This document shows, one piece after another, positions 2,705-32,109 of a DNA stretch of 64,000 nt. The stretch's first letter is position 1. Each line of letters starts with the position of its first letter. Made by a program: the position numbers and the translations under genes. The stretch lies in NCBI GenBank assembly GCA_964620655.1, contig CAZUJW010000002.1, positions 4,144-68,143 of the forward strand. The letters are read 5' to 3'. The stretch comes from an uncultured Christensenella sp. (GTDB lineage: Bacteria; Bacillota; Clostridia; Christensenellales; DTU072). The notes beneath the pieces are model-generated. The model made no database searches. It was given only the letters and a program-made list of their open reading frames with translations, and was not told the origin of the DNA.

Positions 2705-3631
2705 TTACAGCGAATACAAGTCGGTACTTAAATATCTTTCGCCCGTGTCGGGGAACACGACTACGATATTTTTATCCTTATTATCGCCGTCGGCGGCTAT
2801 CTTGCAGGCGGCGCAAAGAGCTGCTCCGCTGCTTATACCGCACAAAAGACCTTCGGTTTTTGCTAAATCTCTCGCATACCCGAAGGCTTCTTCGTCACTT
2901 ACGGTAAGGACTTTATCCATTACTTTTACGTCGAGAAGGGACGGAATAAAGTTGGCGCCTATTCCCTGAATTTTATGTTTTCCCGCATGTCCAACGGATA
3001 AAAGCGGAGAAGAAGCGGGTTCTACTCCGATTACTTTCACGTCGGGAAGTTCTCTTTTTAAGACCTTACCTACTCCGGTGACCGTTCCGCCGCTGCCGAA
3101 AGCCGACACGAAATAGTCTACCTTGCCGTCGGTATCTTCGAGAATCTCTATTGCGGTGGTACGTTCGTGAGCTAACGCATTTGCGGGATTGGCGAACTGG
3201 TCGGGCATAAAGGCGTTAAGTTCTTTTACGAGTTCTTTCGCCTTGTCGACGGCTCCCTGCATCCCGAGAGAACCGGGCGTAAGGACTATTTCCGCTCCGT
3301 ACGCTTTTGCAAGTTTACGCCTTTCCTCGCTCATTGTTTCGGGCATGGTCAATATAAGTCTGTATCCTCTTATCGAGCATATCCACGCAAGACCTATTCC
3401 CGTGTTGCCGCTGGTGGGTTCTACGACCGTTCCGCCTTCTTTAAGAAGCCCTTTTTCTTCGGCGTCGTTAATCATAAATAACGCCGCTCTGTCTTTCACG
3501 GAAGAACCGGGGTTAAAAAATTCTACTTTAGCATAAATTTTTCCGCAGAGATTATACTTTTTTTCGAGTCGTTCCATTCTCACAAGCGGAGTGTGACCGA
3601 TAAGTAAAGTTGCGTCGTCGTATATTTTCAT
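2705..3631 (-). CDS. cysK: Cysteine synthase A (O-acetylserine sulfhydrylase)
   Basis: 308 aa. PLP-lysine motif NPGSSVKDR, TSGNTG loop and GSGGTVTG glycine loop. AAGGAG RBS. Confidence 0.9.
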   Translation of the reverse strand: MKIYDDATLLIGHTPLVRMERLEKKYNLCGKIYAKVEFFNPGSSVKDRAALFMINDAEEKGLLKEGGTVVEPTSGNTGIGLAWICSIRGYRLILTMPETMSEERRKLAKAYGAEIVLTPGSLGMQGAVDKAKELVKELNAFMPDQFANPANALAHERTTAIEILEDTDGKVDYFVSAFGSGGTVTGVGKVLKRELPDVKVIGVEPASSPLLSVGHAGKHKIQGIGANFIPSLLDVKVMDKVLTVSDEEAFGYARDLAKTEGLLCGISSGAALCAACKIAADGDNKDKNIVVVFPDTGERYLSTDLYSL

Positions 3632-3663
3632 ATTGCTTATCTCCTTTTACTATATTACTATAT

Positions 3664-3688
3664 TAAAAAACGGCGTTTTTACCGCCGT
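3664..3688 (-). terminator. Rho-independent terminator after the Crp/Fnr gene
   Basis: Stem ACGGCG/CGCCGT with a 7-nt loop. On the minus strand it is followed by T6 (plus-strand A-run 3665-3670). Confidence 0.6.
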
Positions 3689-3711
3689 CTCTTTCGTAGT
3701 TTAATAAAAAA

Positions 3712-4410
3712 CTATTCAGCCGATTCGGCGAGTTTTTTCAAGGCTTCCAAGTCCTTGATTACTATTATCTCTTTACGGAAAGTGAACATATCGTCGTTGT
3801 CTCTCATTCTGCCCATTTCTCTGGACATACTCGGACGGCTTACGTTAAGGTACTTTGCCATTTCGTTACGGTTCATACCGAGACTTACCGTAAGAGAATT
3901 CTGTTCGCAATACTTGTCGTAAATAAGTTTAGCTATCTTATTACGCATACCTTTCGTCGTTATATAATCGTTGTTATCTTCGAGAGCTTCTATTCTTTCG
4001 CTCATCGCGCGCAAAAGATTTTTTATAAGTTTGGACTTGAATTCTCCGTCGCCTACGTCGGAACCGAAAATGCTTTCCGCCGCTATATACAAAACGGTAC
4101 TGTCGAGAGCAGCCACGACGTAATACCCTAAATTCCTGCCGGGGTTATAACAATGCGAGAGTCCGAAGTATTCGCCGTCTATAAGAGAACGTATAACTTC
4201 TCTCTTGCCGCTGTTTTTTGTTGTGAATTCCACCAAGTTGCCTTCGAGAAGTATGCAGATTTCTTCGGGAAAGTCGTTCTCTTTCGCGACGAGCTGTCCG
4301 CGGGAATATTTTACTATACGGGCTTGCAGATAATCGAAAGCTTCGTTGATTTCCGCGTCGGTAAAACCGTCGAAAAGGGAGCATTTTTTGATTTGCTTAA
4401 TTATTCTCAT
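3712..4410 (-). CDS. Crp/Fnr-family transcriptional regulator
   Basis: N-terminal cNMP-binding-like beta-roll (LFDGFTD...GEYFGL) and C-terminal HTH (MNRNEMAKYLNVSRPSMSREM). GAGGA RBS favours the internal ATG at 4410 over the track start at 4434. Confidence 0.75.
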   Translation of the reverse strand: MRIIKQIKKCSLFDGFTDAEINEAFDYLQARIVKYSRGQLVAKENDFPEEICILLEGNLVEFTTKNSGKREVIRSLIDGEYFGLSHCYNPGRNLGYYVVAALDSTVLYIAAESIFGSDVGDGEFKSKLIKNLLRAMSERIEALEDNNDYITTKGMRNKIAKLIYDKYCEQNSLTVSLGMNRNEMAKYLNVSRPSMSREMGRMRDNDDMFTFRKEIIVIKDLEALKKLAESAE

Positions 4411-4637
4411 TCTATCCTCACTGTTCCGTAGCACACGCTACAAATGAGATTTTACCCTAAATCGATAATTCTGTCAAGAAAAAGGCTCGGAAAATTTGAC
4501 AAATATACGAAATATTTACAGTAAATCGAGTCTGGCGAAAACCAGACGAAAATTATGAAATACTCGGTGCGAGTTGTGTTTTTTTTATCGTGATGCTATA
4601 CTTAATGTTAACAAAAATCATCTCAACGGAGAAAAGT

Positions 4638-5321
4638 ATGAAAGTCGTAAATAATTTTGTTAATTCGATAAAACGCCTGCTCGACAGCAACGTGATTACA
4701 GCGGGAAGAGAGATAAGAAGTTTTCTTATAACTCTTACCGAAGACGAAGAAACGAAAGATATTCTGCGCGCGGTAAGCAGCGGATATTCAATAAACGAAG
4801 ATTATAAAAGAGTGATTATAGAACGCGGACCGCTGCCTAATTCCGACGCGAAAAAAGTGGCGTTCGTGACGGCTCTTCTGTTTGCGATAGACACGGGCAG
4901 ATTGGACTTATCCGACCTTCTCAAAAAACTTTTTCCGCAACTCGACACGGCGGACGGATACTCAGAATTTATAAAAACATTCCTTCGTCCGTATGCGGAG
5001 AGTTTCGTTAATCTCTCAATCGGAGAACCTATCCCCGACATCAAGGAACCGAAAACGCCGATTTTGGACAAAATGGAATCCGACGTCACCGCCGCGGTGA
5101 ACGAAATTATCGCAAAAGTCTCTTCCGAATATCAGGCGGAAGAAATAAAATCGGCGGTCAAGTTTGCGGGTAACGGTCTTATCTATGCGCTGACTTTCAA
5201 GGACTCTTTCCTTACCGAAATAGCCTATAACGGACTTATGGTAACGCTCCGTCTTTACGGCGTAAAAACCGAAGCGGAAAATTTATTGACTTCCACGTTA
5301 AGACTGTACGGAGTAATTTAA
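4638..5321 (+). CDS. Hypothetical protein (no family recognised)
   Basis: GGAGAA RBS precedes ATG 4638; the track start at 4590 is a GTG with no RBS. The stop overlaps the start of the AEC transporter (TAATG). The C-terminus repeats TLRLYGV twice. Confidence 0.5.
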   Translation: MKVVNNFVNSIKRLLDSNVITAGREIRSFLITLTEDEETKDILRAVSSGYSINEDYKRVIIERGPLPNSDAKKVAFVTALLFAIDTGRLDLSDLLKKLFPQLDTADGYSEFIKTFLRPYAESFVNLSIGEPIPDIKEPKTPILDKMESDVTAAVNEIIAKVSSEYQAEEIKSAVKFAGNGLIYALTFKDSFLTEIAYNGLMVTLRLYGVKTEAENLLTSTLRLYGVI

Positions 5322-6241
5322 TGCAGTTTTCGACTACGGCTATAAACGTTCTTATACTCTTCCTTTATTTTATCCCGGGGTATATCCTGATAAAGACGAA
5401 GGCAGTTAAAGAAGACCAGATAAAGGCTTTTGCGAAAGTTCTTTTATACGTTTGTCAACCCTGCCTTTCCATATACTCTTTTCAGAAAGCGAGCTACTCA
5501 CTTGAACTCGTGAAAAATATGGGGATATTCGTAGGGCTAAATATAGCTTTGATGCTTATTATCCTTTTCGGGTGCTATTTAGCACTCCGCAAAAAGTACG
5601 ACGACTGCCGTAACAGAATTCTTACTCTCGCCGCTACTTTCGGTAACGTGGGATTTATCGGTATCCCCTTACTTGAAGCCTTACTCCCCGATAATCCCGA
5701 AGTAATAGCCTACAACGCAGTGTTTATAGTCGCAATGAACGTGATGAGTTGGACTCTCGGATTTTTTATCCTTACCGGCGACAAAAAGTATTTTCACCCG
5801 AAAAAAATCTTCCTTAACCCGCCCGTGCTTTCTCTTCTTGTATCGTTACCGCTGTTTTTTACAAAAACGACTCTCCCGACCGTCTTAGGTAACGGTATCG
5901 GACTTTTAGGAAAAATGACCACGCCGTTATGTATGATGATAGCGGGTATGCGTTTCGCCACGTCCGATATAAAAGCTCTCTTTACCGAACCGAGAGTCTA
6001 TATTTCTTCCGCTCTTAAACTTATAGTAATGCCTCTTTTGGCTTTTCTTGCTGTAAATTGGCTTCCCGTCGATTATCCTATTAAAGCCACTATGGTAATA
6101 CTCTGCGCCTGCCCTACGGCAAGTCTTGTGCTTAACTTTGCCGAAGTCTACGGCAACGGACAAAAAACCGCGTCGTATATGGTGCTTGCGTCTACTATAT
6201 TTTCGATGATTACAATACCGATTGTCCTACTTATACTTTAA
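5321..6241 (+). CDS. AEC (auxin efflux carrier) family transporter
   Basis: 306 aa with about 10 predicted TM helices. Sequence resembles the membrane transport protein (AEC) family. Confidence 0.8.
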   Translation: MQFSTTAINVLILFLYFIPGYILIKTKAVKEDQIKAFAKVLLYVCQPCLSIYSFQKASYSLELVKNMGIFVGLNIALMLIILFGCYLALRKKYDDCRNRILTLAATFGNVGFIGIPLLEALLPDNPEVIAYNAVFIVAMNVMSWTLGFFILTGDKKYFHPKKIFLNPPVLSLLVSLPLFFTKTTLPTVLGNGIGLLGKMTTPLCMMIAGMRFATSDIKALFTEPRVYISSALKLIVMPLLAFLAVNWLPVDYPIKATMVILCACPTASLVLNFAEVYGNGQKTASYMVLASTIFSMITIPIVLLIL

Positions 6242-6270
6242 TGTAAAAACCATTCCTTTGACAAAAAACT

Positions 6271-6294
6271 AAGGCGTCGCAAAAGCGACGCCTT
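6271..6294. terminator. Bidirectional hairpin terminator between the AEC transporter and the DUF1858 gene
   Basis: Perfect 10-bp stem AAGGCGTCGC/GCGACGCCTT with loop AAAA. T-rich flank on the minus-strand side. Confidence 0.65.
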
Positions 6295-6324
6295 AATCAT
6301 AATTTTTACGTTACCGCAGTGTTT

Positions 6325-6531
6325 TTACGCTTTCGCAGCTTCGTTAAGAGCTTTGAGCATTTCGTCGGGGTCGTATCCGTGCGCGATAGCGGCTTGTTCT
6401 ATGGTTTCGCCGTGACTTAAAGCGCAACCTAAGCAGTGCATTCCGAAATTACCGAGAACGTCCGCCATAGCTTCCACGTTTACTCCTTCGGTCTTAAAAG
6501 CGTCGATTAAGAGCATATCTTTGGTCAACAT
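6325..6531 (-). CDS. DUF1858 / hybrid-cluster-protein-associated redox disulfide-like small protein
   Basis: 68 aa with a CxxC motif (HCLGCALS) and the typical ending ...GYDPDEMLKALNEA. GGAGG RBS precedes the internal ATG at 6531. Confidence 0.6.
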   Translation of the reverse strand: MLTKDMLLIDAFKTEGVNVEAMADVLGNFGMHCLGCALSHGETIEQAAIAHGYDPDEMLKALNEAAKA

Positions 6532-6668
6532 ATATCCTTTACCTCCGTAAGTGTTTTTTATTTGGTACGGATATAGTATATATCTTTCGGCGTTTTTTTT
6601 CAAGGCTTTTTCCTAAGTTGCGGAGTAATCGTAATTTATTTTTTCAAAGCGGCTTAATATTTCCCGTT

Positions 6669-7349
6669 TTACTTCTCGCCTATGGTGAGATAAGTGTACG
6701 GATCGGCTGCTTCGCCGTTTTCGTAAAGGCAGAAATGAACGTGCGCTCCGTCGAGATACTCGTTCGTGGCAGTAACCCCCATAGTGCCTATCACTTCCCC
6801 TTTCAGTACGGTTTGTCCTACGGTTACGGCAGGTTCGTTAAGGGAAGAATAAGTGGTGGTAAGTTTATCGTTATGAGTAATGGTCACGGTATAACCGTTA
6901 AGGACGTCGTATTTTATATTGCTTACCCTGCCCGAATATACACTCATTACGCTGTCGCCGTCGTTACCGGCGAAGTCGATACCCGTATGCACGGCGTAAT
7001 GTTTTAAGGTAGCGTTCCAGACCAAAGTGTCTGCGGAATAATCTTTAAGAATATTGACGTCGGCTACGGGGCAGGCGAATACTATCGCCGTGGGCGTAGG
7101 AATGACGGGTTCGGTGGGCGTGGGGTTTATCGTGGGATTGTCGTCGTCGGGTTTTACCGCGTCGTCGGTGGACGGAGTGATATCCTGCGAAGGACCTACT
7201 GGGTCGACTGCGTCCTTATTGTCTTTGACTACGAGAGCTACGGTGACCATTGCGGCTATCGCGATAAGGCAAACTCCCATAATAATGTAATACACGTTCT
7301 TTTTAAGGAAAGTTTTGAATTTCCCGTTCGTTGCGCGTTTCTTTTCCAT
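6669..7349 (-). CDS. M23-family (LytM-type) metallopeptidase with N-terminal membrane anchor
   Basis: HxxxD motif (HTGIDF) and HxH-like motif (GAHVHF). One N-terminal TM helix and a Pro/Thr-rich linker. GGAGG RBS precedes the ATG at 7349. Confidence 0.8.
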   Translation of the reverse strand: MEKKRATNGKFKTFLKKNVYYIIMGVCLIAIAAMVTVALVVKDNKDAVDPVGPSQDITPSTDDAVKPDDDNPTINPTPTEPVIPTPTAIVFACPVADVNILKDYSADTLVWNATLKHYAVHTGIDFAGNDGDSVMSVYSGRVSNIKYDVLNGYTVTITHNDKLTTTYSSLNEPAVTVGQTVLKGEVIGTMGVTATNEYLDGAHVHFCLYENGEAADPYTYLTIGEK

Positions 7350-12155: not shown

Positions 12156-14818
<2,663 letters not shown>

Positions 14819-14832
<14 letters not shown>

Positions 14833-16576
14833 TCTTTCTCTCGTTAAAATAATACGCGTTGTAGTTTGTCAAATTGTCCTCCAAAACCTTTACTGTTTCG
14901 TCTGTAAGTTTTCCTTCTTTGCGCATATGTTTCAACGTGCTGTAATCGGTATTAACCATATAGTTGTAAAAACCTTCTATATAGCGTTTTACTTCTTCTT
15001 TCGGAATATAGTCAGGGTCGCCGTTAATAAGGTACAGCGTTATTATCTCTCTGTCCACGCTCATCGGATCGCCTTCTTTCTGTTTCAGAATTTCGGTGAC
15101 TTTTTCGCCCTTGACGAGAATTTTTCTCGTGTCTTCGTCCACTTCCGCACCAAACTGCGTAAACAACGCCATTTCTCTGAAATGAGCAAGTTCCAATCTT
15201 AGTTTGCTGGAAAGTTTTCTTATAGCGGGATACTGCGCGCTTCCGCCGACGCGGCTTACCGAAAGTCCGACGTTTACGGCAGGTCTTATCCCTGCGTGGA
15301 AAAGTTCGCTCTCGAGATAAATCTGTCCGTCGGTTATACTTATTACGTTGGTGGGGATGTATTGAGAAATATCTCCCGCCTGCGTTTCTATTATAGGTAT
15401 CGCGGTCATACTGCCGCCACCCTTTTCCTGCGATAACTGCGCGCTTCTTTCGAGAAGTCTCGAATGTATATAGAACACGTCGCCGGGATACGCTTCTCTT
15501 CCCGACGGGCGTTTTAAGAGAAGGCTTATCGTTCTGTAAGCGTTGGCGTGTTTCGTAAGGTCGTCGTAAATAATAAGTACGTCTTTACCTTGTTCCATAA
15601 ACTCTTCGCCTATGGCGCAACCGGTGTACGGAGCTATGTACTGCAACGCCGCCGAGTCGGACGCGGTGCTTGCCACTATTACAGTGTTTTTCATTGCGTC
15701 GGCGGATTTTAATTGGGCGATAAGTTTACTTACGGAACTTGCTCTCTGTCCTATTGCGACGTACACGCAGATTACGTCCTTGTCCCGTTGGTTTATGATA
15801 GCGTCTACCGCTATGCTCGATTTACCCGTCTGTCTGTCGCCTATTATAAGTTCTCTCTGTCCTTTACCGATAGGTATCATACTGTCAATAGCAAGTATAC
15901 CCGTCTGCAAAGGTCTGCTTACTTTCGCTCTGTCAATAATGGGCGGAGCGGGGTTTTCTATCGGTCTTACCTTGTCGAAATGTAAAATTTCTCTTCCGTC
16001 GATAGGCTTTCCCAATGGATTAACCACTCTCCCTAACAGGGTTTCGCCTACGGGTACTTCGACTATTCTTCCCGTACACTTGACGGTAACTCCGTATTCT
16101 ATGTTCCTGTCGGCGGTAATAAGCATCGCTTTTACCGAGTCGGACATAAGGTTCATCGCGACGGCGTAGCCCCCCGTTCCTATTTCCAAAAGTTCGTAAT
16201 ACCGACATTCTCTCAGTCCTTCCACGGTAAGAATACCGTCGGCGCAAGTGACTACCCTACCGTAGTTTACGGTGTGCGGCGTAGTGGGAACTTTTTCTAA
16301 AAGTTCTTTCTTCCACATTGAGGGAAGTTCGCCTTTAGCGACGGACTCGGTTATGTACTCGTTACTTTTATTCCTGAACGAGAACAACGCCGACGCCACG
16401 CTGCCGTCGAAAACCGTCTCGCCGTCTTCTATGACGATACCTCCGATAAGATTTTTTTCTTCGGCGTAGGTAATCGTTATTTCTTCACCCGCATATCTCT
16501 CTTTTAGAAAGTCCGACAGCTTTTTACGTTGCGGCGCGGTAAGAGTCACTGAAGTTTTTACCGTGATGTTACGCAT
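14819..16576 (-). CDS. atpA: F-type ATP synthase subunit alpha with an N-terminal ~80-aa delta/OSCP C-terminal-domain-like extension
   Basis: Walker A GDRQTGKSS. At 585 aa it is longer than the roughly 500 aa I recall for typical alpha subunits. Aa ~5-65 (VTLTAPQRKKLSDFL...NLIGGIVIEDGETVFDGSV) match the delta C-terminal pattern. There is no separate atpH between atpF and atpA. Confidence 0.9.
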
Positions 16577-17099
16577 CTTTCTTTTCTTCGTCCTTCTTCT
16601 TTATGCCGTCGAGCAAATTGTCGATAAACGCGTCGTTGTCGGCGGAATTTATTTCTCTGCCGATAATCTTCTTCGATATGTCCACGGCAAGGTCGGAGAT
16701 GGAATAGTAAAGGTTTTCTTTTTCCTTTTCTCTCGCCTTTTCGCCGTCTTCTACCGCTCTCTTTTTTATCTTTTCCGCTTCTTCGTTGGCACCGTCAATT
16801 ATTTCGCTTGCCTGAACCATAGCGGTGACGTGCGCTTCTTCGGCAATACGTACCGCTTCTTCGTGAGCGTCGTCGATTATCTTCTCGGCGTCTTTTTCGG
16901 CACTTTCGGTCTTCTTTACTGCGTTTTCGTAACTTTCCTGTGCCGCTTTGTACTTTTCGTCACGCTTTTGCATGAACTTCTTTACGGGTTTGTACAGCAA
17001 AAATCTTAATGCCACGATAAGAATGACGAAGTTAAGCAAATGCAATAAGAATTCCTGAACGGTAAGTCCGAGAATAATTTCTTTGCTGAAAAAGTCCAT
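16569..17099 (-). CDS. atpF: F-type ATP synthase subunit b
   Basis: 176 aa with a single N-terminal TM helix and a long charged helix. Its stop overlaps the atpA start by 8 nt. Confidence 0.8.
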   Translation of the reverse strand: MDFFSKEIILGLTVQEFLLHLLNFVILIVALRFLLYKPVKKFMQKRDEKYKAAQESYENAVKKTESAEKDAEKIIDDAHEEAVRIAEEAHVTAMVQASEIIDGANEEAEKIKKRAVEDGEKAREKEKENLYYSISDLAVDISKKIIGREINSADNDAFIDNLLDGIKKKDEEKKDA

Positions 17100-17110
17100 T
17101 TTCTACCTCG

Positions 17111-17374
<264 letters not shown>

Positions 17375-18061
17375 TTATTCCGTCGCCTCTGCAATAAACA
17401 GAGTGGACAAAGTAGCAAATATATACGCCTGAATAAAGGCGTGGAATAACGTAGTAATGACGCTCACTATTACGGGTACGACGAACGACGTAAACAGGAA
17501 CGAATAGACGAGTTCGGTAATAAGCAAACCGCTCATTATAGAACCGAACAAACGGAACGACAGACTTACGGGTACGGCTAAGTCGGTGACGATGTTAATC
17601 GGGTTAAGGAAATGTTTGAGACGATTTTTTCCGTTGGCTTTGAAGCCGTAGAAAAAGATAAGTCCGAACGTGGACACGCCCATAGCCACGCAGGCGTTAA
17701 GGTCAGCCATAATGGGGCGGAAACCTAAAAGTTCCACAAGCGTACCCAAGCCGATGTAGATAGCGGCTATCGCTATGTATCCGCCGACAAAACCGGAATA
17801 TTTGCCTTCCGCCATTTTGGAAAACCCGCCGACGAACGTTTCCAGAATAGTCTGAACCTTGCCAGGAACGTCTTTCATCTTTTTTACGACGGTGAGCCTT
17901 AAAATAACCGCCGCAATAATAAGAATAGCGGACACGGCGAGAGCGGTATAAAAAGACGGATTGACCATTATTCTCGTGCCGAAAAGGCTCACCTTTTCGG
18001 GAGATAACGTTTCCGTCAGCCTTTCGTTGACGTCGTTTGCCGCAAGTAAAACGCCTAACAT
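17375..18061 (-). CDS. atpB: F-type ATP synthase subunit a
   Basis: 228 aa with the essential Arg context (SLSFRLFGSIMSG). First gene of the operon; no atpI seen. GAGGT RBS. Confidence 0.9.
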   Translation of the reverse strand: MLGVLLAANDVNERLTETLSPEKVSLFGTRIMVNPSFYTALAVSAILIIAAVILRLTVVKKMKDVPGKVQTILETFVGGFSKMAEGKYSGFVGGYIAIAAIYIGLGTLVELLGFRPIMADLNACVAMGVSTFGLIFFYGFKANGKNRLKHFLNPINIVTDLAVPVSLSFRLFGSIMSGLLITELVYSFLFTSFVVPVIVSVITTLFHAFIQAYIFATLSTLFIAEATE

Positions 18062-23608: not shown

Positions 23609-24238
23609 TTATCTTTCTTCGAGCATCGTTTTTACTTTCATAAGCCTTATCGTATTGCTTCGCTCGTTCTCGTCGAGTTTCATCGTAATATACTTAATGG
23701 TTTCTTCGAGTTGCGGTATCATAACGTATTCGAGAGCGTTTACTCTTCGTCTGTTCTTTTCTATTTCGTCGGCGAGCATATTGCAGGTTTTTTCAACTTC
23801 GGCGAGTTTAACCATTTTTTCGAGCAGTTCGCTAAGATTTGCGATACTTCCGTCAAGTTCCGACGATACCGACGCGAAAGAATAGGGATACAGTTCTTTT
23901 TTATCCCCCGCCTTGACCGCAATCTGCGGCACGGTAACTCCCATAACGTTTTTTTCCGCGGTGGTAAGCTCCACGCCGAAAGCGGGCATCGCTACGGCTT
24001 CTTCGAGTACCTGCGACGTCGTTACGGCGCTTGCGAGCATAAAGGAGCGGAGAGATAACGATAGTTCCGTTTCTATCTCTTCTCTGAGGCGTTTGTTTTC
24101 CTTGACGTACGCCATAAACTGCCTTATGGTTTCGTCCGCCTTGTCTTTAAGAAGTTTGTGTCCCCTGACCGCCGTCTTTAACCGCGTCTTTAACCGACGA
24201 AGTTCCATTCGGGTCGGGTTTACGTTAAGTCTTGCCAT
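23609..24238 (-). CDS. ntpD: V/A-type ATPase subunit D
   Basis: 209 aa. N-terminus MARLNVNPTRMELRRLK is typical of subunit D. Last gene of the operon. Confidence 0.85.
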   Translation of the reverse strand: MARLNVNPTRMELRRLKTRLKTAVRGHKLLKDKADETIRQFMAYVKENKRLREEIETELSLSLRSFMLASAVTTSQVLEEAVAMPAFGVELTTAEKNVMGVTVPQIAVKAGDKKELYPYSFASVSSELDGSIANLSELLEKMVKLAEVEKTCNMLADEIEKNRRRVNALEYVMIPQLEETIKYITMKLDENERSNTIRLMKVKTMLEER

Positions 24239-24250
24239 TATTTTCTCCGA

Positions 24251-25624
24251 TTACTTCTTGTCGTAATATTCTTCGAGATAAGCGTCTCTTATACGTTTCA
24301 GTTCTCCCCTTGGGAGAAGCCTTAACAAGTCCCACCCTAAGTCGAGAGTTTCTTCTATCGTTCTGTTGCAGTCGAAACCCTGATTTACGTAGCGTTTTTC
24401 AAACTCTTCGGCAAAATGAGCGAACTTCCTGTCGGTTTCGGTAAGAGCCGCTTCGCCTAATATTGCGGAAAGCTCTTTCGCTTCCTTGCCGCGGGCGTAC
24501 GCGCTGAAAAGTTGGTTCATAGTGTCGGCGTGGTCTTTTCTCGTCTTGCCTGCTCCGATACCTTTATCTTTAAGACGGGACAGCGACGGCAACACGTCGA
24601 TAGGCGGGTTTATGCCCCTTTTATTTAATTCACGGTTAAGAATAATCTGTCCTTCGGTGATGTAACCCGTAAGGTCGGGAATAGGATGGGTCTTGTCGTC
24701 TTCGGGCATGGTAAGGATAGGTATCTGCGTGATACTGCCCTTTTTGCCCCTTATTCTGCCCGCTCTTTCGTAAATGGTGGCAAGGTTGGTGTACAGATAC
24801 CCTGGGTATCCGCGTCTTCCCGGAACTTCTTTTCTTGCCGCGCTTACTTCTCTTAACGCTTCGCAATAGTTTGTTATATCGGTCATTATTACGAGAACGT
24901 GCATATCCTTTTCAAACGCGAGATACTCGGCAGCTGTAAGAGCCATACGGGGAGTAGCGATACGTTCTATCGCGGGGTCGTTAGCCAGGTTCATAAAAAG
25001 AACCGTCCTGTCGATAGCTCCCGTCTTACGAAAGTCGGATATAAAGTAATCGGCTTCTTCGAAGGTGATACCGATAGCGGCGAACACTACGGCAAACTTA
25101 CTGTCGCTGTTAAGAACTTTCGCCTGTCTTGCTATCTGAGCGGCGAGTTCCGCGTGGGGAAGACCCGACGCGCTGAACACTGGGAGTTTCTGCCCCCTGA
25201 CGAGAGTGTTAAGTCCGTCGATAGCCGATATTCCCGTCTGAATAAATTCGTCGGGGTAGTTACGGGCGACGGGGTTAATCGGTTGTCCGTTAATGTCTAT
25301 TCTCTTATCGGGGATAATGGGCGCGCCGTTATCTCTCGGTCTGCCCATACCGTCGAATACTCTTCCGAGCATATCTTCGCTTACGCCGAGTTCTATACTC
25401 TTACCCAAAAATCTCGCTTTCGCGGTGGAAATTTTCAGTCCCGAAGAACCTTCAAAGAGCTGTACGAGCGCCTTGTCGCCGTTTACTTCGAGAACTTTTC
25501 CGTTTCTCTTTTCTCCGTCTTCCTGTTCTATTTCGACGAGTTCGTCGTACTTCGCTCCTTCCACTCCTTCGACGAGCATAAGCGGTCCGACTACTTCTTT
25601 TATGGTCTTATATTCCTTTAACAT
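24251..25624 (-). CDS. ntpB: V/A-type ATPase subunit B
   Basis: 457 aa non-catalytic subunit with strong family resemblance ([23 protein letters not shown]). Confidence 0.95.
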
Positions 25625-25634
25625 TCCGTATCTC

Positions 25635-27386
25635 CTATCCTATCAGTTCCTGTATTTCGGATTTTAATTCTTTTTCTATTTCGTCGAAACGAGCCAAATC
25701 GCTTTCTTCTATATATTTGGCTCTGCCTATCTTTTCTCTTACGGGGATTTCGATAAGGTCTTCTATATCCACGTTTTTAAGTAAGGCTTCTTGTCCCGAC
25801 TCGTAGAAGTTTATTATAAGACGCAACATCCTTAACTGCTTTTCGAGCGAAGCGTAAGTGTCCACTTCGTGGAAAGCGTTCTGATGAAGATAGTCTTCTC
25901 TTATAGTCTTTGCGGTTTCCATAGTAAGTCTGTCTTTCGCGCCGAGAGCGTCCATACCGACGAGCCTTACTATTTCGTCCAAAGACGCTTCTTCCTGCAA
26001 CACGGTCATAGCCTTGCCGCGTAAAACGTTCCATTCGCTTCCTATATTGTCGTTGTACCACGGAGCCAATCTGTCGGCGTACAGGGAATAACTCTGCAAC
26101 CAGTCGATAGCGGGGAAGTGACGCTTATACGCAAGCGATGCGCTCAAGCCCCAGAATACCTTTACTATACGCAAGGTAGCCTGACTTACCGGTTCGGAAA
26201 GGTCGCCGCCGGGAGGGCTTACCGCTCCGATTGCCGTGACGCTACCCGTCTTACCTTTGCTTCCGAGCACCTTAACTATACCCGCTCTTTCGTAAAACTC
26301 CGCAAGTCGGCTCGACAGATACGCGGGATACCCTTCTTCACCGGGCATTTCTTCGAGTCGTCCGCTCATTTCGCGCAACGCTTCCGCCCAACGGGAAGTG
26401 GAGTCCGCCATTATGGCTACGTTATATCCCATATCCCTGAAATATTCCGCTATCGTTATACCCGTGTATATGCTCGCTTCACGCGCCGCAACGGGCATAT
26501 CGGAAGTGTTCGCGATAAGGACGGTTCTTTTCATAAGGGGTTCTCCCGTCTTCGGGTCGATAAGTTCGGGGAATTCGTTAAGAACGTCGGTCATCTCGTT
26601 GCCTCTTTCGCCGCAACCGACGTAAATAATAATATCCGCGTCCGCCCATTTAGCAAGCTGATGCTGAACTACCGTCTTGCCGCTGCCGAACGGTCCGGGA
26701 ACAGCCGCCACGCCGCCTTTCGTAATCGGGAAAAAGGTGTCTATTACTCTCTGTCCCGTGACCATAGGCATATTCGGAGAAAGTTTTTCTCTGTACGGTC
26801 TGCCTTTACGGACGGAACATTTCTGTACCATCGTTAAGTTATGCTTTGTTCCGTTATCGTCCAACGTAGCTATTACGTCGTCCAACGTAAATTCGCCGTC
26901 TTCCACGCTTTCCACCACGCCTTTTTTGCCGAACGGAACCATTATGCTGTGACGGATAAGTTCGTTTTCCATAACGTAACCTATTTCGTCGCCGGGGATA
27001 AGGGTATCGCCTACTTTCGCCGTGGGGTAAAAACGCCATACTTTGTTGTGGTCGAGAGCGTTTACTTCAACGCCGCGTCCTATACGGTCGCCGCTCTTTT
27101 CCCAAAGTTTGTTGAGCGGTCTTTGGATACCGTCGAATATCGATTCGATAAGTCCCGGCCCCAACTCTACGCTAAGGGGCATTTCGGTGGAAAAAACTTC
27201 GTCTCCCGGTCCTATACCGCCCGTTTCTTCATAGACCTGTATGGAAGCCTTGTCGCCCCTTAATTCTATGATTTCGCCGATAAGGTGCGAAGAAGATACC
27301 TTGACCACGTCGAATAGCTTAGCTTCGGACATTCCTCCGGCTACTATAAGCGGTCCGCTTACCTTGATTACTTTTCCCTTTTCCAT
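25635..27386 (-). CDS. ntpA: V/A-type ATPase catalytic subunit A
   Basis: Walker [10 protein letters not shown]. 583 aa with the non-homologous insert typical of A subunits. Confidence 0.95.
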
Positions 27387-27407
27387 CTATTTCTCCTTTA
27401 AGAAAAA

Positions 27408-27728
27408 CTATTTATCGCTTAAAATATCCGTTCCTATCGCCTTTTCCACGTCGTCGGATATACCTTTCATTCCGAGTCCCGTACTGCCCTGCGCTCCCGG
27501 TATGGGAATAACGGCGGGATAGGGGCGTGTCTTGTATCTTTTTAACACGTCGGGGATTTTTTCCGCAATATCTTCCGTAATAAAAATCACGGCGTAAGTT
27601 CGGGCGAGTTTCTTCAACGTGTCGGCGGAATCGAATTCGTTCCTGACGGGATAAACGTCGACACCCACCGCCTTGAACGCGAGTATGCTGTCCTTATCGC
27701 CGATTACGGCTATCTTGTCCCTACGCAT
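27408..27728 (-). CDS. ntpG: V/A-type ATPase subunit F (E. hirae NtpG-like)
   Basis: 106 aa. IAVIGDKDSILAFKAVG is typical of subunit F. Positioned between C and A. Confidence 0.75.
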   Translation of the reverse strand: MRRDKIAVIGDKDSILAFKAVGVDVYPVRNEFDSADTLKKLARTYAVIFITEDIAEKIPDVLKRYKTRPYPAVIPIPGAQGSTGLGMKGISDDVEKAIGTDILSDK

Positions 27729-28698
27729 ACAACTCCCTCACTCTCTTTTTCATCTGGTCTTCGGGTACGCCGTTCTTTATGCAAACGAGAACCACCCTTA
27801 TTACCTTAATTTCGTTCAGCTTCGCAAGGTAATAACCTAAAATCGGAGCTACCGAAAACATATCGGTCTTATTTACGGAGAATATCTTCAACAGATACTC
27901 GTCCTGCGCCGTTTCGTAGGCGGCGAAATCGTCGCTTAGTACCTTGTCGGCGAATTCTTTAAGATAACTTCCCGCAAGGTAATTACTTAGTTTATTTTTA
28001 TCTCCCGAAAAACTTAAAAATTCTTTTTCGGAAACTTTACCGCCGTCTATAAAGTTTTCGGTAAAGAAGTTTATTCCCGCGCCTATCTTTTCGACGCGGA
28101 GATAACTTAGTATATTCGTCAAATCGGCGTTCGCCTGAAAATAAAGTTTTATATACTTGTCGGCGTTTTTATCGAGGCGGGAATTTATTTCGTCGTACAT
28201 AGCCTTGTCGAGAGTTACGTCGATAAGTCTCGGAGTGCCGATTCCTGCTTCGAACGCCTTATTTATTTTTTCGCAAGCCTTTTCGGCGAACGGACTGAAA
28301 TCGACTTTGTTTTGGTCGAACCTTTCTTTAAGATACCCGAAAGTGTAGTTGCCGTCGGGTAAAATAAGTCCGTCTATATCTGTAAGATTAGCGTACTTTT
28401 GCTTAAAAAGGACTTTAAGGTTATGATAATCGTTCCTTAAAAAGTAACATTCTATTCCCGAATCCTTAGGGGCGGCTTCTCTGACGAAAGCCGCGGTAAG
28501 GCGTTCTTCTTCGTCGAGCAGGGAATAAAAATCGTCCTTTTCGGGAATGAAGGCTGCGGCGTAGTTTACTTCCAGCAAAACGCGCATAGCGTCGGAAACG
28601 GTTTTCGCTTCCGTCATACGCATAAGTCTTTCCTTAGAAAGTAAATTGCCTTCTTTGCCTTTCGCTCTCGCATTGGCGAATATAAGTCCGTCTTTCAT
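27721..28698 (-). CDS. ntpC: V/A-type ATPase subunit C (V0 d-like)
   Basis: 325 aa helical protein, positioned between E and F as in ntpFIKECGABD. Confidence 0.75.
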   Translation of the reverse strand: MKDGLIFANARAKGKEGNLLSKERLMRMTEAKTVSDAMRVLLEVNYAAAFIPEKDDFYSLLDEEERLTAAFVREAAPKDSGIECYFLRNDYHNLKVLFKQKYANLTDIDGLILPDGNYTFGYLKERFDQNKVDFSPFAEKACEKINKAFEAGIGTPRLIDVTLDKAMYDEINSRLDKNADKYIKLYFQANADLTNILSYLRVEKIGAGINFFTENFIDGGKVSEKEFLSFSGDKNKLSNYLAGSYLKEFADKVLSDDFAAYETAQDEYLLKIFSVNKTDMFSVAPILGYYLAKLNEIKVIRVVLVCIKNGVPEDQMKKRVRELYA

Positions 28699-29274
28699 CT
28701 ATTCTCCGAATAAAATCGCCGCTATTTCGGGTTCGTACTCTTCTCTTACCGATTTAAGCTCCACTTCGAGCGACATGTTTTTGTCGCTGTCATCGCCTAC
28801 TGCTATAATTCCGCCGCAAAAATCGCCGTATCCGCCGAAAAATAACTTCTTATTCAAGTCGTCGGCAACTCCGCTAAGCCACTTCTCTCCGACTAAGTTT
28901 TTATCGCTTTCGGAAAAAATCACTTTATCGCCGTCGGAAGCCTTTTCTATCATTCCCCTGAGTAATTTGAAATAGCTTTTTCCGTTTTCTTTGATAAGTT
29001 TTACCGCTTCGTCGAAAGCCGCCGTCATTACTTCCTGCTTTTTCGCAAGAATATCTTTCTTAACTTCGAGATTGGCTACCGTTATTTTTCTGCGGATAAT
29101 TTCCTTACGTTCTTCGTAAGATTCGCGCATATTCTTTTCGCGATAAATCCGAGCGTCGTTTTCGGCGGTTTCTATCGTTTTTTTACCGACAGTGCCCGCT
29201 TCTTCCAAAGTGGAATTGGCTATTCCTCTCGCGTCGGAAAGTATTTTTTCTATAATAGCTTCTTTTCCGTTCAT
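28699..29274 (-). CDS. ntpE: V/A-type ATPase subunit E
   Basis: 191 aa with a long charged N-terminal helix. Positioned after K. Confidence 0.75.
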   Translation of the reverse strand: MNGKEAIIEKILSDARGIANSTLEEAGTVGKKTIETAENDARIYREKNMRESYEERKEIIRRKITVANLEVKKDILAKKQEVMTAAFDEAVKLIKENGKSYFKLLRGMIEKASDGDKVIFSESDKNLVGEKWLSGVADDLNKKLFFGGYGDFCGGIIAVGDDSDKNMSLEVELKSVREEYEPEIAAILFGE

Positions 29275-29293
29275 ACCGTTCCTCGGTTATTTT

Positions 29294-31788
<2,495 letters not shown>

Positions 31789-31802
<14 letters not shown>

Positions 31803-32109
31803 AGCTACTAAAAACCTTTTCTCTTATGAAATCGGCAGCCGAATATACGTCGGCTTCCTTTGCCAATTTTTCCGTAACCTGTTTCCCGGCAAGGAGAATC
31901 TTAGCGTACTCTTCGTCGCCTTCCTTTTCGGCGGCTTCCGCAACCGACTTACGTTCTTCCTTAACGTTCTTTACCGTGTCTTTACGCAGTTTTTCCGCAT
32001 AAACGTCGGCGTCTTCCACTATCTTTTTAGCATCTTCCGACGCTTGCGACGTGATAATTCTCGCTTCTTCTTCCGCCTTCAATACGGCGTTTACGGTTTC
32101 GGTAATCAT
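31789..32109 (-). CDS. ntpF: V/A-type ATPase subunit G/H-like (E. hirae NtpF-like)
   Basis: 106-aa charged helical protein and first gene of the operon. AAGGAGG RBS. Overlaps the ntpI start. Confidence 0.6.

Follow-up and report, generated by a model that had tools for sequence, protein, structure and literature searches.

Fused atpA gene in the F-type operon

The window, that is, the whole stretch of 64,000 nucleotides (nt) analysed here (positions 4,144 to 68,143 of the forward strand of contig CAZUJW010000002.1, assembly GCA_964620655.1), belongs to the genome of an uncultured Christensenella sp. and carries on its minus strand a compact operon for an F-type ATP synthase with the gene order BEF-A-G-D-C. 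The gene for subunit alpha, atpA (14819-16576, minus strand), was found as a single open reading frame (ORF) of 585 amino acids (aa) and was divided according to its profile matches and alignments into a module of the delta/OSCP C-terminal domain (aa 1-76, 16349-16576), the N-terminal helix segment of alpha (aa 77-100, 16277-16348), and the canonical F1 alpha body (aa 101-585 and the stop codon, 14819-16276). An earlier note on this DNA, made from the letters alone, had claimed that the delta subunit is reduced to its C-terminal domain and fused in frame to alpha at 16322-16576; this position corresponds exactly to aa 1-85, and the fusion was borne out by PF00213, NCBIfam models, AlphaFold2, and Foldseek. 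No start codon was present upstream of M1 in the atpA frame, and M1 is thus the first possible start.

The identity of the N-terminus was examined with the OSCP profile PF00213, a check that the earlier note had proposed along with a genome-wide search for atpH and a survey of relatives. The profile matched aa 3-69 of the fusion at profile positions 104-170 of 172, and the isolated N-terminus of 95 aa gave an E-value of 1.1e-13 (52 bits; gathering cut-off, 22.3). Several NCBIfam equivalogs for delta also matched there, at the same positions near the C-terminus of the profile. An AlphaFold2 model of aa 1-130, generated from an alignment of 13 clade members, had the topology b-a-b-b-b-a (b1, 2-8; a1, 14-27; b2, 33-39; b3, 47-51; b4, 54-57; a2, 60-80); the predicted four-stranded sheet and two helices correspond to those of the delta/OSCP C-terminal domain. 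The predicted local distance difference test score (pLDDT) was 80-84 for aa 1-40, 58-67 for the remaining part of the domain, and 65 overall. When the model was compared with the Protein Data Bank (PDB) using Foldseek, the best 40 matches were all delta/OSCP C-terminal domains at a probability of 1.00, with a root-mean-square deviation of mostly 2-4 Å (range, 1.8-5.0) over about 70 columns. G46, D51, and G52 were invariant in the 13 clade members, whose identity ranged down to 32%, and the delta motif residues G45, G46, E50, D51, G52, D57, and S59 were invariant in the alignment of the fused-protein clusters described below. The N-terminus of this atpA product is a delta/OSCP C-terminal domain.

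The remainder of the protein is an alpha subunit. TIGR00962 (atpA) spanned aa 94-575 with 686.1 bits (cut-off, 484.45), the barrel (PF02874), nucleotide-binding (PF00006), and C-terminal (PF00306) domains were all matched, and PDB alpha chains aligned with the fusion at an E-value of 1e-170. At the junction, aa 82 aligned with alpha residue 6 in PDB 2qe7; the delta module therefore extends from aa 1 to approximately aa 76, and alpha is joined to it without an added linker. In the helix segment, which was delimited by the 2qe7 alignment, the AlphaFold2 helix, and the clade alignment, a conserved (E/D)(L/I)P motif was found with P85 invariant in the clade alignment, and the model placed the N-terminal helix of alpha at aa 85-95 and the beta-barrel from aa 107. 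A model of the whole 585-aa protein, calculated from an alignment of 10 rows, reached a pLDDT of 42 and was unusable for the alpha body, and the N-terminal model was used instead.

A separate delta gene was sought in the operon and in the genome (1.93 Mb in 81 contigs, 95.7% complete). The stop codon of atpF and the start codon of atpA share an overlap of 8 nt, ATGCGTAA, in two different frames, and for this reason there is no space for atpH between the two genes, as the earlier note had stated. A six-frame search of the genome with PF00213 returned the fused atpA as its sole OSCP match, and no free atpH was found. The N-terminal helical bundle of delta (profile positions 1 to about 100), which binds the N-termini of alpha on the axis of the head, is likewise absent, as had been claimed: nothing precedes the C-terminal domain in the fusion, and the genome contains no other OSCP match. 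In the genome-wide search the match seemed to begin at profile position 84, and a remnant of the N-domain was considered as its source; this was rejected, for the extra 20 profile positions arose where the match ran past a TAA into the 3′ end of atpF, which lies in another frame, and are not a vestige of the N-domain. A search of the genome with PF00006 found no second F-type alpha; apart from the fused alpha and the adjoining beta, it matched subunits A and B of a V/A-type ATPase and, more weakly, two sequences that are not of the F-type. All alpha copies of the head therefore come from the fused gene.

The other genes of the operon, all on the minus strand, are as follows. Upstream of atpA lie atpB (Fo subunit a, 228 aa, 17375-18061), whose best match among the NCBIfam F0F1 subunit A models had an E-value of 4.5e-28, all of these matches being under the curated cut-offs; atpE (Fo subunit c, 82 aa, 17111-17359; TIGR01260, 66.8 bits; cut-off, 43.95); and atpF (b subunit, 176 aa, 16569-17099; Pfam ATP-synt_B, E 4.6e-19; TIGR01144, 76.8 bits; cut-off, 65.5). 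Subunits a, b, and c are thus each encoded once in the operon, and the b subunit is of ordinary length and has no delta-like extension. Downstream lie atpG (gamma, 286 aa, 13972-14832), which was named from its position and sequence and whose start overlaps the 3′ end of atpA by 14 nt; atpD (beta, 466 aa, 12569-13969), with a PF00006 match at the corresponding genome position (E 2.5e-74); and atpC (epsilon, 138 aa, 12156-12572), which was named from its position in the operon.

Distribution and origin of the fusion in Christensenellales

Nine protein clusters, drawn from Logan, ENA, and JGI assemblies, showed the same architecture (PF00213 followed by the alpha domains, 585-587 aa), and their N-terminal 110 aa were 54-95% identical to those of the present protein. 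The four closest carriers among GTDB species genomes were Christensenella sp. UBA6420, uncultured Clostridiales RUG11213, Christensenellales bacterium LOHA29_bin.008, and an uncultured Christensenella sp., and their labels assign the present organism to Christensenellales. Because the fusion recurs in independent assemblies and its delta motif residues are conserved, it is very probably genuine and conserved, and with no other copy found, it is very probably the real and sole alpha and delta of this genome. The analysis encountered none of the findings named in the earlier note as refuting the fusion, namely a separate full-length atpH with no OSCP similarity at aa 1-85, or an assembly error at the junction.

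To survey the order, PF00213 was searched against 60 relatives, from which 49 further loci were retrieved, and 50 alpha loci from 61 related genomes were examined. A delta comprising the C-terminal domain only was fused to alpha at 26 of the 50 loci (frames of 577-746 aa), while at 20 loci it was encoded by a free ORF of approximately 71-98 aa between atpF and atpA, hereafter mini-delta. A full-length delta (approximately 174-187 aa) was present at three loci, and at the remaining one the match was confined to the C-terminal domain of a 184-aa protein. Among the 13 relatives without an OSCP match, 12 had no F-type alpha at all and one had a divergent fused alpha. Loss of the delta N-domain is thus the rule across the order, and fusion is a second step; the loss precedes the fusion, because sister lineages hold a free delta consisting of the C-terminal domain only.

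A maximum-likelihood tree was constructed from the alpha bodies, and at least three changes were required to account for the label "fused" on it; as judged from this tree, the fusion originated at least three times within the order. Clade A comprised 16 rows including the present genome and was sister to a clade of 12 rows with a free mini-delta (Shimodaira-Hasegawa-like approximate likelihood ratio test, 95). Its 15 further genomes, which represent different species and include four named GTDB metagenome-assembled genomes (MAGs) from different studies, carry the fused ORF without interruption. Clade C, also fused, consisted of two rows. Clade B, a second and independent fused clade, had a very divergent delta C-domain and was found in seven genomes (G001, G002, G011, G016, G034, G049, and G052; loci L037, L041, L036, L073, L035, L038, and L030). 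The consensus of its delta part was approximately YLYSA.P....GF..F...KYG....L.W......GGF.L.V..D.YDWS, which gave a Pfam E-value of 1e-3 or no match; since this C-domain is nearly undetectable, the operons of clade B would be annotated as lacking delta. One GTDB genus (g1) held three well-separated alpha lineages, namely the fused clades A and B and the clade with a free mini-delta, and two genomes (G035 and G049) each possessed two F-type operons of different types. Such mixing of alpha lineages suggests replacement of operons or their lateral transfer within Christensenellales.

The origin of the fusion in clade A was examined by comparison with the sister clade, in whose genomes a free mini-delta of 71-83 aa ends in a stop codon that overlaps the start of alpha. 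In G003, a relative of the same genus, the gene for a 71-aa mini-delta begins within the end of atpF, and its stop overlaps atpA. The DG(S/T) motif and the alpha barrel are 46 aa apart in the fusion and 44 aa apart in G003, the latter counted over the mini-delta tail and the alpha N-terminus. Since the two spacings are nearly equal, a simple loss of the stop fits the origin of the fusion. The fused gene would then have formed by read-through of the overlapping stop and start between an existing mini-delta gene and atpA, with no sequence lost and no linker gained.

Two further arrangements of the delta C-domain were noticed during the survey. In another relative of the same genus, G004 (L042:1525-1935, plus strand), the free mini-delta is duplicated in tandem to give a 136-aa protein with two OSCP C-terminal stretches (PF00213, E 7.7e-25). 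Proteins of about 141-151 aa with two OSCP stretches and of 360-412 aa with three were also recovered from a library of representative proteins, and deltas with multiple C-terminal domains seem from these sequences to be a recurrent form. In G036, a relative of the same family (L023:677-2899, minus strand), a triple fusion of 740 aa was found, consisting of an N-terminal transmembrane b-like arm (weak match to ATP-synt_B, E 0.007), a delta C-domain (aa 155-228, E 3e-11), and an entire alpha subunit; upstream of it lies a separate b gene of 144 aa.

Most deltas were of full length in 300 genomes sampled from the class, and among the matches listed were both fusions with the C-terminal domain only (604-611 aa) and delta-alpha fusions with a nearly full-length delta (668-691 aa). 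The search of the representative library, carried out with the N-terminal 100 aa of the present protein, returned 71 delta-like proteins and no fusion of about 585 aa, a result that is uninformative on the frequency of the fusion; the missing fusion is likely explained by fused alphas being hidden in ordinary alpha clusters at 50% identity.

Comparison with known fusions and shortened deltas

The locus has the C-domain of delta in frame on the alpha N-terminus, lacks the N-domain, and contains no free delta gene, and it is therewith of the delta(deltaN)-alpha kind. The earlier note had stated that delta-alpha fusions were not known. This is outdated, since natural ones (Acidaminococcus fermentans D2RLW6 and UniProt G4Q3K6 and A0A1I2C5T3) were reported by Ueno et al. 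(bioRxiv 2024; Nat Commun 2025, PMC12229609) and the kind was surveyed in a preprint by Mulkidjanian, Kuchevskiy, and Dibrova (bioRxiv 10.64898/2026.10.01.756066). Going by the description given of them, the Acidaminococcus-type fusions have the same architecture, with the N-domain gone and the C-domain on alpha. The kind had accordingly been in print between 2024 and 2026, and what is new here is a member from Christensenellales, an order of the class Clostridia. Acidaminococcus is a genus of Negativicutes.

The preprint reported short deltas (<130 aa) and delta-alpha fusions across phyla including Bacillota, in a phylum-wide treatment that tied the pattern to the predicted size of the c-ring (10.64898/2026.10.01.756066). 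Its main text does not name Clostridia or Christensenellales, and the alternation between free mini-delta and fused forms is not resolved there.

The closest experimental counterpart is an engineered enzyme. According to Ueno et al. (PMC12229609), the N-domain of delta caps the threefold axis of the head and hence limits the enzyme to one stalk; in the Bacillus PS3 enzyme they deleted delta residues 2-104 and fused residues 105-178 to alpha through a GSGG linker (PDB 9JC1). By cryo-electron microscopy, up to three b2 stalks were seen, each with its own a-subunit, in a mixture of one-, two-, and three-stalk particles; the stoichiometries of a and b were 2.4 and 2.0 times those of the wild type, the H+/ATP ratio was 5.9 as compared with 3.1, and the equilibrium proton motive force was halved (PMC12229609). 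The present fusion aligned colinearly with the engineered chain 9jc1_I (580 aa) in one stretch, query positions 11-560 to chain positions 13-562, and this chain was also matched by the N-terminus of the fusion alone (E 0.08). Both proteins (580 and 585 aa) carry only delta residues corresponding to approximately 105-178 on the alpha N-terminus, and neither system has a free delta. They differ in that the PS3 chain is man-made with a GSGG linker, whereas the natural protein is joined directly; the sequence identity of the delta parts is low; and stalk number (one to three) and an H+/ATP ratio of 5.9 were measured for the PS3 enzyme, whereas the Christensenellales enzyme is known from its genes. 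The question raised in the earlier note, what three delta C-domains per head would mean for stoichiometry and assembly, was the right one, and its experimental answer belongs to the engineered PS3 analogue only.

In nature, a shortened delta together with more than one b2-a stalk is found in the F-ATPase of Chloroflexus aurantiacus (PNAS 2025, PMC12002316; PDB 9ITJ), in which two stalks are held by a dimer of 157-aa deltas. The C-domain of its delta was among the best matches of the fusion in sequence and fold. The Chloroflexus delta is free, keeps its four-helix N-domain, and dimerises to give exactly two stalks, whereas in the present system the N-domain is wholly missing and delta is covalently attached to alpha.

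In the mycobacterial b-delta fusion and the b subunit of N-ATPases with its delta-like C-terminus, as in the present protein, a covalent bond connects the delta C-domain to an adjacent stator subunit; this subunit is b in those systems and alpha here, where b is an ordinary protein of 176 aa. The N-terminus of the fusion weakly matched NF009961 at positions 378-438 and TIGR03321 at positions 178-241, and membership in both groups was considered and rejected. The alpha scored 589.7 bits against a cut-off of 750.5 for TIGR03324, the gene order was BEF-A-G-D-C and not the atpDCQRBEFAG of N-ATPases, and b had no OSCP match. For a b-delta fusion of the mycobacterial type, atpF scored 40 bits against the NF009961 cut-off of 328, and the delta domain is part of the alpha ORF, which is read in another frame than atpF.

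Stalk number and physiological setting

How low the membrane potential of a cell may be for ATP still to be synthesised depends on the ion/ATP ratio of its ATP synthase, and this ratio was formerly thought to vary with the size of the c-ring only. The engineered fusion revealed the number of stalks and a-subunits as a second variable (PMC12229609), and natural deltas consisting of the C-terminal domain only, whether free or fused, are obvious candidates for three-fold-symmetric stators. To these the present locus adds a well-conserved and abundant lineage of the gut and rumen, Christensenellales.

As the genome contains neither a delta-derived nor an F-type alpha sequence besides the fused ORF, each alpha of the alpha3beta3 head would bear its own docking site for b2, and no delta N-bundle would occupy the threefold axis. 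The delta C-domain would dock to the C-terminal end of the b2 dimer as in canonical enzymes, and the covalent link would take over, as anchor of the peripheral stalk, the grip that the N-domain normally has on the N-terminal helix of alpha. If the engineered PS3 enzyme is taken as a model, the three equivalent sites could then accommodate more than one b2-a unit around the c-ring, and additional b2-a units would raise the number of ions used per ATP and might allow ATP synthesis at the low ion-motive force of an anaerobe based on Rnf. Genes for the latter are present: an rnfC-rnfD-(rnfG-like)-rnfE cluster was located on contig C24 of the same genome (approximately 3200-6900; locus L072), with 497, 221, and 228 bits to TIGR01945, TIGR01946, and TIGR01948, respectively. 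This cluster indicates, as judged from gene content, ion-gradient formation by Rnf, and it is consistent with an anaerobe that depends on a small ion gradient and would profit from a high ion/ATP ratio.

That the native enzyme usually carries more than one stalk is plausible by this analogy and is put forward tentatively. The wider proposal that Christensenellales F-ATPases are natively multi-stalk, with two or three b2-a units per c-ring whether the delta C-domain stands free, occurs in tandem, or is joined to alpha or to both b and alpha, is possible and equally doubtful. If it held, the ion/ATP ratio would be two- to three-fold over c/3 and tuned to the small gradient generated by Rnf in these fermenters, and the repeated fusion to alpha would represent an evolutionary route by which one docking site per alpha becomes fixed. 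Three points weigh against such an enzyme. The engineered one was mixed in stalk number (PMC12229609), so the fusion alone does not set this number; an in-frame ATG (M87) just past the junction could in principle yield a plain alpha; and a complete operon for a V/A-type ATPase is encoded in the same window (23609-32109, minus strand), 4.5 kb from the F-type operon. The presence of both operons gives the organism two rotary ATPases and makes the physiological role of the F-type enzyme less certain.

Slightly under an even chance is given to the alternative that the fusion is only a cheaper anchor, with one stalk and one a-subunit per enzyme, two delta C-domains idle, and an ordinary ion/ATP ratio, the stalk number being capped by the supply of a and b or by assembly of Fo. 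The set and order of the operon genes are ordinary, with a single gene each for a, b, and c; particles with a single stalk were obtained from the engineered fusion as well (PMC12229609); and free mini-delta and fused forms alternate in sister clades of one genus as if they were interchangeable. Economy alone is harder to reconcile with the engineered PS3 enzyme, which averaged about two functional a-subunits without further adaptation (PMC12229609), and the order-wide loss of the axis-capping N-domain together with at least three origins of the fusion suggests selection beyond it.

It is unlikely that plain alpha is also made from the fused gene, either from an internal start at M87 (ATG at 16316-16318) or by proteolysis at aa 66-85, which would leave fewer than three delta domains per head; one fused alpha beside two plain ones, for instance, would bring back the 1:3 stoichiometry. 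Methionine is common at this position in the clade, and the product starting at M87 would begin about five residues past the start of the free alphas of the sister clade. Yet the closest relative (98% identity in alpha) has Ala (GCG) at position 87, and Asn, Arg, Leu, or Phe occurs in others; the sister-clade alphas carry a hydrophobic residue of the N-helix at this position, which explains the Met. The only bases resembling a Shine-Dalgarno sequence (AAAGG) lie 13-17 nt upstream of M87, and the codon of Gly82 varies (GGC, GGT, GGA), so that no Shine-Dalgarno sequence is kept at synonymous sites.

An assembly or sequencing artefact, for instance a stop lost or a reading frame shifted where a mini-atpH would meet atpA in the MAG, is extremely improbable in spite of the fragmented assembly, since the ORF is continuous both in the nine clusters, which come from three independent sources, and in the 15 further genomes of clade A, and the N-terminal domain is conserved at the amino-acid level as is typical of coding sequence.

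For the reading that more than one stalk is carried natively, the order itself supplies material. Fused and unfused sister forms within one genus are natural controls for biochemistry, and the full-length delta, mini-delta, double mini-delta, delta-alpha, and b-delta-alpha forms make up a natural series in which stalk number can be compared.

As a minor observation on the c subunit, helix 2 of atpE, as read from the sequence, has the E/T/T/Y pattern of the Na+ type, while helix 1 contains GVGMG, with Met where c-subunits of the Na+ type carry Gln; the coupling ion bears on any ion/ATP argument for a c-ring built from atpE.

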